A stretch of DNA of 64,000 bases from assembly GCA_000320545.1 (NCBI GenBank), contig ADNK01003018.1:15119-79118 (forward strand), read 5' to 3'. Below, in pieces: positions 14,304 to 23,816 of this stretch. A program made the position numbers and the translations under genes. Origin of the DNA: Bigelowiella natans CCMP2755 (Eukaryota > Protista > Cercozoa). Each line of letters opens with the position of its first letter. Position 1 is the first letter of the stretch. The notes under the pieces were generated by a model. That model was not told where the DNA came from, ran no database searches, and worked only from the letters and a program-made list of their open reading frames with translations.

Positions 14304-17040
14304 GTATATCTACTATGATTCCAAGTGTTGTTGAGCGCCCTGGTATGTAGTTTGTAGAGTACAAACAGCAGCACCAATGAAAAACTACCGACTGTGCTAA
14401 TTTCAGTGCATTCTCTCTCTCTCTCTAACGCTCCTTCCCAAGGATATGAATCGAGCTAGACTCTCGCAGTGATGGATATGTAGAATAAAGTCATCATCAT
14501 TTACTTTGTGGCGAAGGGATGTCAAAATGAACATTTCTCCAAATATCTGATTCACCTGATGATACAATATGGTCATGGAACATCAAAGAATAAACACAAA
14601 TTCCAAGGAAGGTGAGGCCAAGCAATTGTGATATGGGAGAGGAATATATCCATATTCTGAACGCGCACAACATACTACGGACATAGCACACATTTGTTCA
14701 AATAGCAAAAACACAAACCATTGAAAAAATGATGAAGAAGCAAAGATGACATGTCCTACCCATTAGTAAGTACAAATGAAGGAAATAATCACATCGTACA
14801 ATCAATACACCCACCCTTTTAAGATCATCGATGCCTTTCTTTTCCATGATTTTGATGACAAGTCCTTGCCCGCCACTGACTCGTCGCGCAAACTACCAAC
14901 ATGACGCGTTATCGTTAGATATCAACCCCCATCCATGAATCATCTATCGTGTGTATTATCAGATTGGTATCTACATCATCATCGACTAATTGCTGGAGGT
15001 AGTGGTATGGTAGAATATACAATAACAGATTGAGTACTACCTTTACTTTTCCAAATGCTCCTTCCCCAATAGTTCTTCCGACGTTGTACCCTTTCACGTG
15101 AATTCTTGGAGATGATACTCGGCGGGCACTACTACTTTTGATGATCAGCAATAATAATGGAGATGGAAAAGAAGAAGGACAGGGAAAAATAAAAAGTAGT
15201 TGAAGTGAATGATGAAAGACAGACCATGATAGTGTATGATACGACATCAACAACAATTACTAAGACACATTTTTATAATGCTGGCAACTGGAATAGGTAT
15301 CTCTGAATCATCATCATCATCGTATTCCCCAAAATAATCCTTGATCTTCCTTCTATATCTTACGTATTCTTGATCTCTCCTCGCTCTCTTTTCGACGTTG
15401 AATACACGGAGGTAAGCAAGGATCTTAAAATAAGCAGAGCAGCAGCAGCAGCAGCAGCAGGAGGAGGAGGAGGAGTAGCAGACACGGAGCGAGAATGATG
15501 AGCTCAGTTGGATCATCATCAATTGTCACCACAAAAGAAGGGCATAATTTAGTTTGAGGTAAATCATCCTTCATTTAGCATAGTCAAAGCCAGAGGAATA
15601 AAATTTAGGAGGAGGAGGAGGAGGAGGAGGAGGAGGAAAGATATATGGCAGAGAGAAGAAGGGAGAAACAGAGAGAGACAGAGAGACAGAGAGAGAGATA
15701 GTTGCTATGACAGAGAGAGACAGAGAGACAGAGAGAGATAGTTGCTATGACTTTGGTTGATCCTGTTGATCCTGCGAGCACCCCGTTGATGGTATTGTTG
15801 TTGTCCTACTACTACTCAAAGTGCTACTCCTCCTCCGTGTTCCACGTGTAGATGATGATGATGGCCTTGGAGAAGGCTGCTGCGTTGTGGAGACCGTAGT
15901 ACCAGTAGTAGTAGTAGTAGCAGTACCAGTAGCAGTAGCACCGGCAGTGGTCGCAGCATTGATCGTACTACTACTACTACTACTACTAGTAGTAGTAGTA
16001 GTGATGGCAGTAGTACCAACAGCAGCTACGCTACTACCAGATCGTATTGCTGCTTCTGCTGTCCCTGAATCAAGTTCTTTTGATGATGAAAAAGTTTTCT
16101 CACCAAGAGTCCGAACAGATCGAGGAGATGGAGTATGTGGTAACATTGGTTCCGCCTAAGTGTCATTAAGAGATATTCAATAATGTGCTAACATTGAGAC
16201 ATGCAAAAACTCACGGAGTTACATCATTATATATCATCTTGGTTTTAACACCTTCACTCCCCGCAGTATTGAGCCTGACAACGGACGCAACAGATCTATG
16301 CTGCTTATGCATCCTGAAGACCGTACTTTTGTTATGCCTGACGCTGGTGTTTCAACAAGAAGATGATGATCTCTCGGCTGCGATTTGTTAATTCTCGGAA
16401 GCTCAAATGGAGAAGCGCTGTATATTCAAACAAGTCACATGAAGAAATCGCATGTAAGCTATGTATTCGGCCTCATTATATATTATAGATATTTTGTTCT
16501 TTGGGAACAAATTGTTTGAAGACCATTCGTGACTGTAAGCTACAGATTTGTTGTTAAAATTGTACGTAAATCTACATACATACTCTCCCTCTTTCACACA
16601 CACACACACGCACGCACACACATAAACATAAACATCTCCGTGGAAATAAACTTACAATTTATGAGTCGCAGTTTACAACATAATATCTAGCTATATAAAT
16701 ACACGTATATTGTTGTTTTTGTTGTGATAATTTATATGTGTTTACGTTCGAGACGAATTCCGATAGTGCTGATCCCTTCGATGGCTCATGTCTCTTCTGA
16801 GCTTTAGATAGATATATTGAAAAAAAAGAATTAAAAAGATGTTTGATGAGAAGCTGCTATTCACATCGAAATGTAGAGCCCACACATAATTTTCGAAGCG
16901 GTACGTAATAATGCTACTCGAGATAGAAAGAGATTTCATCAACAACCTCCTATTTTCCGGATCCTTCTCCTTTTGTTTGTTCTTCTTCTTAATCTAGTCT
17001 TTTGTTTTCCTGCTGCTGCTTTGTGAGAAGCAGAAGCCAT
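10145..17040 (-). CDS. CAMK-group Ser/Thr kinase (SNF1/AMPK/MARK-like), multi-exon, long low-complexity N-terminus; 3' end approximate
   Basis: Exons read YNVGRTIGEGAFGKVK (~15040-15090), LVIKIMEK (~14850), NVIQLYDV (~14160), VMEYAEGGEL (~13890), VIHRDLKLENILLD (~13090), NIKIVDFGLSERLLGDAKLESVCGTPLYMSPELMRGQKYDGSTDVWSLG (12762-12911), VVLYAMVCGFLPF (~12630). Likely ATG at 17040 (MASASHKAAAGKQKTRLRRR). Confidence 0.9.
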
Positions 17041-17623: not shown

Positions 17624-18255
17624 ATGCCCGCCCTTATGCATGCGTCACTGTTTTTTTCAGTGGAATTGGAAGATGTAAAAAGTAACCTGATAACATTGCA
17701 GATAGATGTTCCTGCGGACCCTGCAGAAAAAGCTAGCCGGCTCTCTGGCTTTAAGACGCCCGGGCCAAAACCTTCGTGTTGTCAGATGCATCCCAAAGTT
17801 GCGCCTGTTCAACGAAAAAAAACTGGACCAGGACACTACGGCAGCGAAGTCACTGGTAGCTAATAACATATTTCGCATCCTATTACACATGATATGAGCG
17901 CAATTACTAATTCCAGCCAGAGCACGTAGAACTCGATACACGGAGGAAAAAGGCACTATGGAGGTGTAGGCAGAGAGGATGGGTTGAGATAGATTTGCTA
18001 ATGGGTAACTGGGCATCAGAGGCTATACCGCGCATGAGCTCCGAAGAACTCGATCAACTTGAAGTCATCATTGCTCAGGTGTATGATAGTAATCATCAGC
18101 GAAGAAAGCAGATAGTGGGGACATCTTTGAAAACTACGAAACGATAGTAAATTAATGGTCTGCCTCTGGAACAAAGATGAAAGAAAGAAATACTGTTGTA
18201 TGGTGGATACTTCCTTCGCTATTCAAAAAGGGAGGGTATTGAATACAGAAGCACA

Positions 18256-19529: not shown

Positions 19530-22402
19530 CTAGCAAAGGAATTGTGTAGGTGTTAATACGCTTTCAGGGTTATCCCAACCCGCGGGCTCTTCATTTGCAC
19601 AACAATTTCCTGGACTTGGGTTGACCAAGGTAAGAAGACCGTTTACATTGTGTAGGTACTTCTTATGCATTTCGATGTTCCATTTAAGTTCATGCTCCAT
19701 GTAATACTGATATGCCCTCCAAGGCTCCTTCACAAAACGACCTACTTGAACAATCCCGTAGTGCAACATGTCATGATATCCAGAGTTGTGCCCGTAAGTC
19801 CAGCCCGTGAAGTGGAATGTTGCGTTTTTATTGAGGAAAAACTGAACTGTTGAGGATTGTAAGATGAGATCATTCCATCGATTGGTGAATATCTTGCCAG
19901 ATTCATCCACATAATTCAGAAAATTTTGAACGTCAGGCTGCAAGAATCTCTCAATATCAGCTACAAAGAAATTGTTGTAGAAACCGAACTGCTCTCCACA
20001 GTTCTCCCGTGTTAAATCATCTACACTTTCCTTGCTTTCACACAAATCAAGATACCATCCAGTTGTTCCTTCCATATGCTTTTTACTATAATTTCTTAAG
20101 TACGCCGAGTAGTCATCAGGCTTAGGCCATATAAGACCCGTCTCTCTCGCTATGTTACGATAACCATAGCCTATTCCATAATGTTCCATGAAGCCGAAGA
20201 GGTTGTAAGGAATCTCGCTAAGTAAGTAGGAGTCATCATCGAAACGAGAGACCCATCTGTATCCTAGTTTTTTCATCATAGGCCATATTCGAACAGCATA
20301 CAGTCTCATCATTTTCCTGTATCCCATGCCTTCTACACCTGCCCAGTGTTTTCGAGATTCCATGACTTTAGCAGGAGGATCCTTCCAATCTTCACCCTTC
20401 AAATGGTGGAACTTGATCTCAGGACGCCCAGCGATAACAGCTTTCTGAGCTTCGGCATCAAAATCTCCCTCGTGCATAACGATGACATCATCGTGTTCAC
20501 GATCATTATAGTGTTTGAACAACAGTCGCAAAGTATTATTGAGAATCTCCATTCCTGGTCGTCCGTAAGTTTGATGTTTTTTATTTTGTGCTAATATCAC
20601 AAATGCTCCTTTTCCTACAAAAATAATAAATAAGAATATACAAGTACGTAAGAAGAGAATGGAGGAGGACAACAACATAATTATAACAAACTAGGATGAC
20701 TACTACGCATATCATATTAATAAATAGAGTAGAATCTAGCACCTGTTTTAGGTTTTCCGATTTTCAACTTCTTCGCTTCTGCCTCTTTTGCAAACTCCGC
20801 GTTGACATGAGGACAGCACGTAGTGTCCCCAAGTTTGCCCCCACCGTAGTCTGGAAGCGGATCCGTATTACTACATTTGCCCTCTGATGTGGCCAGACTG
20901 TAGGTGTTGGGATCTGCGAATAACATCTTTCTCTTCTCGTCGGCTGATTCTAGATCTGTTATCTCACCATAAGCAGGCAATTCAGGGAAGTCACCACTGC
21001 GGAAGTACACACCGAACTCTGATACCGCAGACCAACACTTGACAAGGCTGTCTGTTTGAGCTAGCATGAGAGAATCCATCAATACATCTTGGCACTTCTG
21101 ATCTTTGGATACAGAATCATTGTAGAGAACGTTCGCATCCTGTCTGTTTGCCTCCAGCACTCCTGTATTATTCAAATATAAGTCACACAATCACGCATCA
21201 TCAGTTTCTATCTCACCGCTACTGATTACTACTACTACTAATACTAATACTTCACAAGGCGTTGAATGAATTTATATTTCTTGTAGAAATTACCAAGGAC
21301 ATCAGGGAATTCTTGCTTCATATCAGAGAGGTAGTTCTTATCATCTGTCGCTAAGAAGACTCTTGAATTCGGGCCGTTGAGCTGAACGTGTTCAGTGGCA
21401 AGTCTAATGTATGATTCAGGGTCTACACGGCCATGCACAAATTTATCCGTTCCACGCATGTGGAGACCAAGAATGGGCTTATTTACTTCTCTATTAAACA
21501 ACTGTGAGTACTTTGACTTAGCCATGTCAAGGAAAGATTTCTTGGCGTGAATGTATTCTTTGACGATCTTTGTTGCCTTCTTGCGGTTGTTATCCAGCCA
21601 CGTGTTTCCACATTCCCATTCACTATCACCAGGATATGGATATGCATGTGTAGCGTTTTTGTCATAGAAGGAGCTCATCAAGGAGTCTTGTGTGAGTTCC
21701 CATACATCCGCATCTTTGACACTTTTAGGATCAACACTAGAGATTGGTTCGAAGTATTTATGCCAGAAATCAGCAGAACTCTGTCCACCCTTAGCCGTAT
21801 CGTTGATGCATGAGTGATAGTGATGAGACTCGGGCATGTAAACAAATGGTGCCTTATCTCCAATTAGGCCCTCCCTCACAGCAAATTCGAGTTGATTGAG
21901 CACCATGTACGGGAACGTGAAGAACCCGCAACCCATCATAAACTTATAGTTGGCTCTGATACGAAAATGCTTGCTCCTGAGCATAGGCCTTAGCTTGTCA
22001 AGGTTCGACCCTACCTTAGTGCTTTCAAATCCTTTGAAACTGAAGTTAAAAGCTTGTGTATCTGCGACATCTAGGCTGTAGCAGTCTCCGGAGGCTTGGC
22101 ATGGTGCCTTAAAATCACAAGATTCTTGTGTTACCATGTCTGCAAGGCCACATTCACCAATACTTCGGCATCCTTTTGAATTGCACACTTTCGTTGGATC
22201 TTCCTTCTCAAAGAGACGTGGAGTAATAGAATATTGCTTGTATTCACGGGTGTCGAAAAGCCACGCCTTCATCATGAAGTTGTTGTACCTTAATAAGTGA
22301 TTTTAGGTTAGACGTAAGTCGAAGGGGCCGCTACATTGATTATTTAATCAGACGAATGACGACGACTGTGCTTCTCTCCATGCAGGAAGAATGCCATTAT
22401 TC

Positions 22403-22435
<33 letters not shown>

Positions 22436-23816
22436 CCTACTCATTAATGTGACAATTGATGAAGATCATATACCTTATCGGCCTGTTGAATAGCGCAACA
22501 GCAGCTCGAGCACCTTCACGACTTAGTAGGTAAGCGTGGGAACATAGCTGATTCTGAGCCTCTACCAACTTATCTTCGCTACCGAGATCCTTCTGCGAAA
22601 CGATGATGATAAACGATGACACCAACACTTGTTAGTCAATGTTCGAATGCATGAGGCGACAACAACACTTAGAAATGGAAGTACTAATAGCAGCAATGAG
22701 AGACAATAATTACACCAAATGCGGTATGTGCTTTGCTGTTCAGAAGACAGCAGTAGCTGCAAATCGTATCGTACCGTAACGTTCTGTCTGAAGCACTCAG
22801 ACATGCATCTGCCAAGATTGATCTCATGGAAATCTTTCGGAGCTGCATCAATCAATTGCTCTAGCTTTGCCATCAATCCTCCGTCTTTGATGCTCTTCTG
22901 TCCATGCGAGGAAAGTTTGATACCATCTTCCAGTACGAGTGCGTATTCTGAGAAAGTAGTTGTCGCATGTTCGGACAAACACCAAAAATGAGTACGGCAG
23001 ACATTCGCTACTCTCAACTATCGTATGTCTTATCACATCAACAGCAGGTTCTCTTCTAACATGAAGAAGTGTGAAATCAATTTTGACCTGAGGTAGAAGC
23101 TAAAAATCTCTGCAGGCCTTCAGCGTGAACTTTCGTCAAAGCTACGTGTGCTGCCATTGCTTTTTTACTTTTCGGGTCTTTGTAGTTTTTGCTCACCTGT
23201 TACACAATGATGACATAAATGATTCAGGTTGAAAGCAGTAAGGTTGTGTGTATTTTCCACTCCCTAGACGTGTGCAAGAAATTTTCAGAAGGTGCTACGT
23301 GGCCATCTCATTACCAGGCCAGTGAATTTAAGATCGTCATTATCAATCGAGTTCGACTGATACTCGCGGAAAGCGCCTGTCACTCCGTAACCTAGATCTT
23401 GATTTTTTCCTGGACCCTTATCTACCACAGCAATGCTGGCGAAGAAGTCTGAAATATCGATCTTTTTGCCTTGGCCCTTAATAGATATCACCGAGAAGCT
23501 GTGTTTTTTCGGTGAACCCATCACAAAGCTGAGCAAATAAAGATGATACAAAGAGTTAGGAATGTAACAGGACTTAATCTTAGATTATGTGCTAAACTTT
23601 ATGATCTCAAATGATAAAGTACGGAGCCACTTTAAGGTATGACAACGACCTTGGATGGTTTCCCGTATCTCTGTCAGCTTTCAACTCGCTGTAATCAATT
23701 GAGAATGAAACATTGACACCCTCCATAGAGCCGTAAGTATTATCCAATTGATACACATGCTTGTGCATCAGCCCACTGGAGGGCAAAGCCCAAAGCAGGA
23801 TGAGGGAGAGAAGCAT
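19530..23816 (-). CDS. Signal-peptide-bearing three-domain glycosyltransferase: GT25-like + NodZ/GT23-like fucosyltransferase + GT15 (Kre2/Mnt1-like) mannosyltransferase, 8 exons, 1102 aa
   Basis: Exons 23816-23623, 23528-23315, 23196-23088, 22947-22775, 22592-22474, 22288-21294, 21162-20743, 20614-19530; all GT-AG with matching phases (3309 nt). Motifs: MLLSLILLWALPSSG (signal); YALVLEDG and CSHAYLLSREGA (GT25-like); LGLHMRGTDK, VFLATDD, DSLMLAQTD..SAVS (NodZ/FUT8-like); GYRKMMRLYA, RFDDDSY, FYNNFFVAD, IFTNRWND (GT15). Confidence 0.88.

Follow-up and report, generated by a model that had tools for sequence, protein, structure and literature searches.

A minus-strand gene at positions 23816-19530 of a 64,000-nucleotide (nt) window of Bigelowiella natans CCMP2755 (contig ADNK01003018.1, positions 15,119 to 79,118, GenBank assembly GCA_000320545.1) encodes three glycosyltransferase (GT) folds in one polypeptide. 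The window is the whole stretch of DNA that was analyzed, and all positions below refer to it. The chain joins a GT25/COLGALT1-like domain, a FUT8/NodZ-like domain and a Kre2/GT15-like domain behind a short hydrophobic leader. A first-pass annotation of this DNA had taken the protein for a lumenal assembly line in which all three domains act in turn. We give about an even chance to a different account, namely that of a secretory enzyme with two activities, those of domains 2 and 3, whose dead GT25 fold likely holds the acceptor glycan. Judged by its relatives in the databases, the protein is one of a chlorarachniophyte set, so far undescribed, of shuffled glycosyltransferases with one to four domains.

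The gene is real, a single spliced gene encoding a chain of three folds. It runs from an ATG at 23816 to a TAG at 19530 in eight exons (23816-23650, 23528-23315, 23196-23088, 22947-22775, 22592-22474, 22288-21294, 21162-20743 and 20614-19530), which together give a stop-free open reading frame (ORF) of 1093 amino acids (aa). The seven introns, each of 118-185 nt, are all of the GT-AG type and have compatible phases. Frame compatibility alone is weak splice evidence because every intron offers 2-15 in-frame donor/acceptor pairs within 45 bases, and the evidence used here consists of assembled contigs and protein records. The spliced model is identical to the B. natans JGI model 91145 (P0009, 1093 aa), with 0 mismatches. 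A 3361-nt contig of a close relative (L001), the one locus to which 317 pattern matches in a metagenome scan led, is intron-free from ATG to stop and has 0-base gaps at 7/7 junctions. These two records confirm the proposed ORF through seven canonical introns. The length first given for the chain, 1102 aa, has to be corrected: a second donor at 23622 in intron 1 (23529..23649, 121 nt) yields exactly 1102 aa, and both L001 and P0009 use the donor at 23649 instead. A database protein (P0012) matches aa 594-1093 with 100% identity; it spans intron 7, begins with the first complete codon of exon 7 and lies on a 3726-nt contig, a start that a transcript retaining intron 6 (21293-21163) would show.

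The fusion of the three domains is borne out by P0009, by L001 and by P0003, a Lotharella globosa transcriptome protein of 1056 aa, which is full length, carries the same three domains and is colinear over aa 32-1093 at 48% identity. The boundary between domains 1 and 2 (about aa 313) falls within exon 6 and the linker between domains 2 and 3 (aa 669-685, 20885..20935) within exon 7, and the fusion is therefore independent of any splice call. The introns at 22473-22289 and 20742-20615, across which a test of the joins had been suggested, are located inside domains 1 and 3 and not between domains.

Hidden Markov model and structure searches, which the first-pass annotation had named as a way to overturn its reading, recovered all three GT folds in the order it gave, by profile searches, Foldseek and alignment of the predicted model. 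On the full protein, Pfam places GT25 at 162-257, FUT8_N_cat at 528-637 and GT15 at 726-1009. The AlphaFold model, built from a 71-sequence alignment (mean predicted local distance difference test score, pLDDT, 80.3; predicted template modeling score, pTM, 0.58), aligns with COLGALT1 over 53-292, FUT8 over 363-671 and CmsA/Ktr4 over 705-1093. Exons 1-5 and 7, scanned singly with Pfam, gave no GT match, and an NCBIfam scan returned 0 families in 4/4 proteins.

Domain 1 (aa 60-312; 22135..23518, minus strand) has a GT25/COLGALT1-like GT-A fold and is predicted to be catalytically dead. Its family profile (56 sequences) matches COLGALT1 at E 4.5e-15, with a Foldseek E of 9.9e-11, and its Atlas score to GT25 clusters is 0.94-0.95. 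Folded alone, the domain aligns with COLGALT1 at VIA Z 16.0 (root-mean-square deviation, rmsd, 4.0; 209 residues aligned), and within the full model at Z 16.4 (rmsd 3.4; 202 aligned). It remains below the Pfam PF01755 cut-off (13.2 bits vs 24, E 0.084), which its paralogue P0064 passes with 29.2 bits, and Pfam GT25 is found at E 0.01 or better in 38/43 relatives scanned. The vaccinia envelope protein H3 has the same fold (Z 13.4).

The active site of this fold has lost the two residues on which its closest structural match depends. According to the available sections of a COLGALT1 study (PMC12987934), the Mn2+ ligand is D437, in the EDD motif, and the base is D522; activity was almost abolished in D437A and completely lost in D522A. 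Our profile alignment maps D437 to G172, the last residue of a broken E170-D171-G172 motif (22922..22930), and D522 to F265 (22276..22278). The GT25 alignment held 86 domains from 81 proteins; with the clade of the triple (P0009, P0003 and two P0069 pieces) set aside, 82 rows were left, some of them near-duplicates. Position 172 is Asp in 78/79 filled rows of these relatives and position 265 is Asp in 78/80, and no compensating acid is visible in the domain 1 alignment. Both the EDD motif and the base are preserved in the B. natans paralogues 74171 and 73401. L. globosa P0003 has E-S-D for EDD and a Tyr at the base position, and the degenerate GT25 domains cluster together among intact ones (Shimodaira-Hasegawa approximate likelihood ratio test 96; quick tree of 31 rows). 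The proposal that the GT25-like domain is a working transferase finds no support in view of these replacements, the base being lost in the L. globosa orthologue as well. The closest two-domain paralogue, B. natans 91051 (P0069, residues about 222-305), also reads E-D-G, in a model that seems to be wrongly spliced where the GT25 domain ends.

Despite the loss of these residues, the fold itself is conserved. Compared with L001, the ratio of nonsynonymous to synonymous substitution rates (dN/dS) is 0.051 for domain 1 (251 codons, 92.4% identity), 0.079 for domain 2 and 0.064 for domain 3, values that come from one pair and a simple counting method at dS 0.75-1.14. G172 and F265 are unchanged in L001 at a dS of about 0.8. 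Because the fold is maintained at this low ratio while the base and the Mn-binding Asp are gone, domain 1 fits the description of a pseudo-enzyme, a conserved fold without catalytic residues.

Domain 2 (aa 314-668; 20936..22131, minus strand) has a FUT8/NodZ-like GT-B fold and its own N-terminal Cys motif. The profile matches FUT8 at E 7.6e-8, structural alignment gives Z 16.6 for FUT8 (rmsd 3.4, 249 aligned), 14.3 for NodZ and 14.2 for POFUT2, and FUT8, O-FucT and NodZ clusters of the Atlas score 0.95-0.97; the Pfam FUT8_N_cat score of 26.1 bits is just beneath the 27.6 cut-off. An HMRGTDK motif (21442..21462), with H537, R539 and K543 equivalent to FUT8 H363, R365 and K369, is followed by a loop devoid of Glu. 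FUT8 H363, R365, D453 and S469 bind GDP in all solved fucosyltransferases, as stated in the available part of 10.1101/2020.02.14.949818. Domain 2 keeps all four, as H537, R539, D622 and S637, which are found in 15, 14, 13 and 13 of 15 other rows, respectively (a gap lies within one residue of the Ser column), and in 4/4 orthologous sequences. The donor is likely GDP-fucose, as far as these residues can tell. Fold and HxRxTD motif of the proposed NodZ/FUT8-like domain thus stand, and its GDP-binding residues are in place; the alpha-1,6 linkage of the NodZ and FUT8 enzymes cannot be assumed for it, for reasons given below.

Domain 3 (aa 686-1093; 19533..20884, minus strand) is a Kre2/GT15-like GT-A fold with a CCPH stem. 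It passes Pfam GT15 (PF01793) with 57 bits against a cut-off of 25, its profile matches Kre2p at E 8.5e-32, and it aligns with CmsA/Ktr4 at VIA Z 27.0 (rmsd 3.2, 307 aligned). The metal motif D858-D859-D860 and H1008 are intact, their counterparts in Ktr4p being E262-P-N and H411, and the Ktr4p contacts to phosphate and guanine are matched by Y831 and E781; the Mn, phosphate and guanine contact residues used for this mapping are those given in the sections available of PMC4546622. R856, D858 and D860 are each kept in 22/23 other rows, P0003 being the exception, and the metal site is kept in 3/4 orthologous sequences. Pfam, fold and metal ligands support the GT15 assignment made at first pass; its mannosyl transfer can be held only conditionally, given F949 at the position of Kre2p Glu329, and mannose is a plausible donor. 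The same GT15-like subfamily is fused to Methyltransf_22 in P0013, P0004, P0005 and P0008 (Emiliania huxleyi and other records), hinting at O-methylated glycans.

The protein starts with a likely cleavable signal peptide (about aa 1-15, 23772..23816) whose best 10-residue mean hydropathy is 2.74 at residue 2; no 19-residue segment exceeds 1.28, and there is neither a transmembrane segment nor a KDEL-type end. A hydrophobic stretch near the start is present in 16/16 relatives checked, with a best 10-residue mean of 1.8-3.2. The short hydrophobic leader with no anchor, 9 sequons and 22 Cys suggest a soluble protein of the secretory pathway. The secretory location first proposed therefore holds, with hydropathy as the support for the leader and cleavage as a probable event. 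A plastid-type bipartite leader seems unlikely, given the acidic residues after the leader, the sequons and the Cys content. The Cys motifs had been described as Cys-rich linkers between domains, but they are domain ends that single-domain paralogues also carry. C296-C307 is the end of the GT25 domain, with a similar motif in 5/5 single-domain GT25 relatives checked; C318-C330 is the start of the FucT-like domain and is present in 5/5 checked; the ..CCPH stem is the start of the GT15-like domain, its CP motif occurring in 5/5 checked and nearly the whole segment in P0158.

Across database searches, the modules occur alone and in many combinations. The B. natans paralogues, known here as database proteins only, include the GT25-FucT-like pairs 73401, 74171 and 91051, the lone GT15-like protein 89865, the four-domain protein 66156 (P0071/P0148; GT25-FucT-like-GT25-FUT8-like, 1291 aa, also a transcriptome record) and the gene model 79635 (P0143; FucT-like-GT25-FucT-like-FUT8-like, 1415 aa). 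Further arrangements are GT25-FucT-like-GT25 (P0072) and GT25-GT25 (P0070), and lone FucT-like proteins are found in L. globosa and Amorphochlora amoebiformis. With the base Asp in both of its GT25 domains, 66156 is more promising as a possible true assembly line than the gene at 19530..23816. P0090, P0102 and P0130 combine GT25 domains with GT47, GT64/GT2-like and GT32-like domains.

Midpoint-rooted trees place domain 2 of the triples with 91051 and the fragment P0055 (support 99/99), and domain 3 with 89865 (100/100). The simplest reading of these trees would be a single fusion before the Bigelowiella/Lotharella split, followed by duplication and partial loss, and the triple likely arose by addition of a GT15-like module to the recurring GT25-FucT pair before that split. 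The nearest Atlas clusters of domain 2, and several of those of domain 1, are mostly viral, a lead on origin rather than evidence of transfer. Among 8 proteins longer than 630 aa matched by domain 3 in an insensitive word-index search, 3 also have domain 2: the L001 relative, the L. globosa protein and another record that groups with the latter. All three word-index protein searches were insensitive and the sensitive search covered domain 1 only, and the architecture may also occur beyond chlorarachniophytes. The UniRef label 'Protein xylosyltransferase' on P0003 is unsupported by Pfam.

The combined results suggest a model in which intact GT25 paralogues would make a beta-galactoside, and the dead domain 1 would bind this product and offer it to domain 2 as the acceptor, in the manner of the dead GT-A domain of B3GLCT. 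Domain 2 would then transfer fucose from GDP-Fuc in an inverting, metal-free reaction, using a base other than the one of FUT8, and domain 3 would transfer a GDP-sugar, probably mannose, in a retaining and Mn2+-dependent reaction. The protein of B. natans would likely perform at most two steps and that of L. globosa one, because the domain 1 residues are lost and P0003 has additionally lost the metal motif of domain 3.

Several observations weigh against this account. Domain 1 retains H151, E170, D171 and R210, which makes residual donor binding possible, and its distance between genera relative to that of domain 2 is 1.47, compared with 0.77-1.25 in 5 intact-site pairs, a descriptive comparison. 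Within domain 1, L001 has a 1-base insertion near codon 180 (about nt 546) and a stop at codon 246 (nt 744-746), followed by an intact frame of 846 codons; the same stop ends P0011 (aa 189-245), and Met267 is also the start of P0002. Some strains may be able to do without domain 1, or the breaks in L001 may be read errors near the 5' end of the transcript. An origin of the Met266 start of P0001 by intron-5 retention is ruled out, as the contig is intron-free and the insertion and stop lie upstream. The packing of the domains in the model is not trustworthy either (pTM 0.58, both linkers at pLDDT <50, the one between domains 2 and 3 over 672-697).

For domain 2, the base of FUT8, Glu373, is absent: its column corresponds to H546 or G547, and Glu occupies it in 1/15 family rows. 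Since the single-domain members lack this Glu as well, its absence suggests a family trait that points to another base and not to a dead domain. Candidates for this role would be H546, E641 and E414, the two Glu residues being invariant in 15/15 other rows; the loop 541-547 has low confidence in the model, and the matching loop in FUT8 is disordered without GDP. The linkage is uncertain, and alpha-1,6 cannot be carried over because the scores of NodZ and POFUT2 are nearly equal (Z 14.3 and 14.2). In domain 3, F949 replaces Kre2p E329, and Phe fills this position in 20/20 filled rows of the algal subfamily. With Glu329, which we take to be important for the sugar subsite, absent, the donor and linkage of domain 3 are uncertain. 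Domain 3 of L. globosa P0003 is degenerate, with G-F-G-D-S-S for R-F-D-D-D-S and further changes at E890, N947 and R978, and by this comparison the two activities are not constant across orthologues. Residues 670-1028 of P0003 have a branch of 0.28 vs 0.076 in the sister P0002 and look like a second pseudo-enzyme domain.

The alternative that survives best, which we nonetheless consider rather unlikely, is that the dead domain 1 is purely structural, serving folding, spacing, oligomerization or Golgi retention, and that domains 2 and 3 work independently on separate or diffusing acceptors. Modules found alone and in so many combinations fold, and probably work, separately; the two-domain 91051 and the lone GT15-like 89865 nest with the domains of the triple; and the lesions of L001 are confined to domain 1. 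COLGALT1 likewise has a dead N-terminal GT-A domain that, in the sections of PMC12987934 available, binds UDP-Gal and not the acceptor. Nevertheless, of the three domains the first shows the strongest conservation relative to L001 (92.4%, dN/dS 0.051), beyond the needs of a plain spacer, and the fusion has been retained in two genera.

It is distinctly improbable that, as first proposed, each of the three domains is active and contributes in sequence, by channelling, to a Gal/Fuc/Man glycan. Three GT folds on one chain, strong purifying selection on all of them and the recurrence of intact GT25-FucT pairs among the paralogues speak for it, and a precedent exists in the chlorovirus protein A111/114R with its GalT, XylT and FucT domains (PMC7826918, available portion). 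The first domain, however, lacks base and Mn-binding Asp with no acid in the alignment to compensate, and in L. globosa domain 1 is without its base and domain 3 carries the substitutions described above. Were three steps obligatory, one would not expect an orthologue in which two of the domains are stripped.

We see still less reason to regard the whole protein as a secreted glycan-binding adhesin or decoy derived from former enzymes and retaining little catalysis. A cleavable-type leader with no anchor, one dead domain in B. natans and two in L. globosa, and the domain-1 fold of the vaccinia envelope protein H3 (Z 13.4) would agree with such a role, which we rate as very improbable given the GDP-binding residues in 4/4 orthologous sequences, the domain 3 metal site in 3/4 and the general scarcity of nucleotide sugars outside the cell. 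Finally, partial database proteins (P0012 from aa 594, P0010 from 754 and P0001 from 266) could be taken to mean that the gene model merges neighboring genes, an artefact that has next to no chance in view of two junctions within uninterrupted exons, an intron-free ATG-to-stop contig and a full-length L. globosa transcriptome protein.

Bacteria and giant viruses offer well-known chains with several GT domains, and animals have two-domain cases; Dictyostelium PgtA and the bacterial proteins WbdA/WbbB add to the list. The chain of B. natans resembles A111/114R of chlorovirus PBCV-1 in joining three GT domains (about 300 aa each in the viral protein), among them fucosyl- and galactosyltransferase types, which in the virus are proposed to serve one glycan core (PMC7826918). 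As far as the sections available of the same source describe it, the viral system is ER-Golgi-independent, has the order GalT-XylT-FucT and is thought to be active in all three domains, whereas the gene of B. natans is nuclear and spliced, encodes a secretory leader and has another domain order with a dead first domain. LARGE1 and K4CP also carry two catalytic GT domains per chain that act on one glycan and alternate two sugars processively (PMC13411425, in part available); the protein of B. natans shows no sign of polymerization.

B3GLCT offers a parallel for domain 1: it has an additional GT-A domain whose active site is vestigial but which is still required for binding the acceptor (PMC13597200, available text). 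There, two GT-A domains form one enzyme, while here a dead GT25 fold, with acceptor binding as its putative function, precedes two unrelated folds. COLGALT1 is the best structural match of domain 1, with EDD and base columns that align, and it too joins an inactive, N-terminal GT-A domain to an active one; in the available part of PMC12987934 its GT25 domain is the active one, and here it is the stripped one. Domain 2 shares the GT-B fold, the H-x-R-x-T-D-K motif and the four GDP-binding residues with FUT8/NodZ (GT23), but unlike FUT8 it lacks the Glu373 base and the SH3 acceptor domain and scores below the Pfam cut-off. Domain 3 resembles Kre2p/Ktr4p/CmsA (GT15) in its Pfam match, its Z of 27, its metal ligands and the phosphate-binding Tyr, and differs from them in having DDD for EPD, Phe for Glu329, Gln for the guanine-stacking Arg and no type II anchor. 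Three-GT chains (A111/114R) and dead GT-A domains (B3GLCT, COLGALT1) are thus already known. For the present combination and for the shuffled chlorarachniophyte family, a literature search over titles and the starts of abstracts, with subscription journals mostly outside its range, found no account, and the parts available of PMC13196603 and PMC6260743 hold no description of the architecture.

There is no glycan cluster around the gene: among 11 neighboring ORFs scanned by Pfam, one match exceeded its cut-off, an exon of the succinate dehydrogenase assembly factor Sdh5/SDHAF2 (17911-18147, plus strand, 44.9 bits), a downstream neighbor unrelated to glycans. Two open frames of 211 codons at 35015-36364 (plus strand) have no Pfam match above cut-off, and the second of them bears what we take to be a resemblance to CmcJ/NvfI-type oxidoreductases. 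A fragment at 14915-15256 (minus strand) shows by eye a glycine-rich, kinase-like N-terminal motif and has no Pfam match.

A bolder idea, which we hold to be unlikely at present, is that chlorarachniophytes possess, in their secretory pathway, a modular kit for programming glycans. GT25, FucT-like, FUT8-like and GT15-like modules would be shuffled into chains of up to four domains so that domain order spells a glycan, and point changes would switch a module from writer to dead reader; the protein of B. natans would be reader-writer-writer and its L. globosa orthologue reader-writer-reader. If domain 1 is only structural, the fusion would be an ordinary lineage-specific one between enzymes. Otherwise, a eukaryotic secretory family in which three or four unrelated GT folds are recombined, and in which one genome has matched live and dead forms of the same module, would provide a natural series for studying the influence of pseudo-enzyme domains on acceptor specificity and any channelling that comes with fusion. 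The finding also points to an uncharacterized surface glycan that contains fucose, in algae of a group that giant viruses infect.

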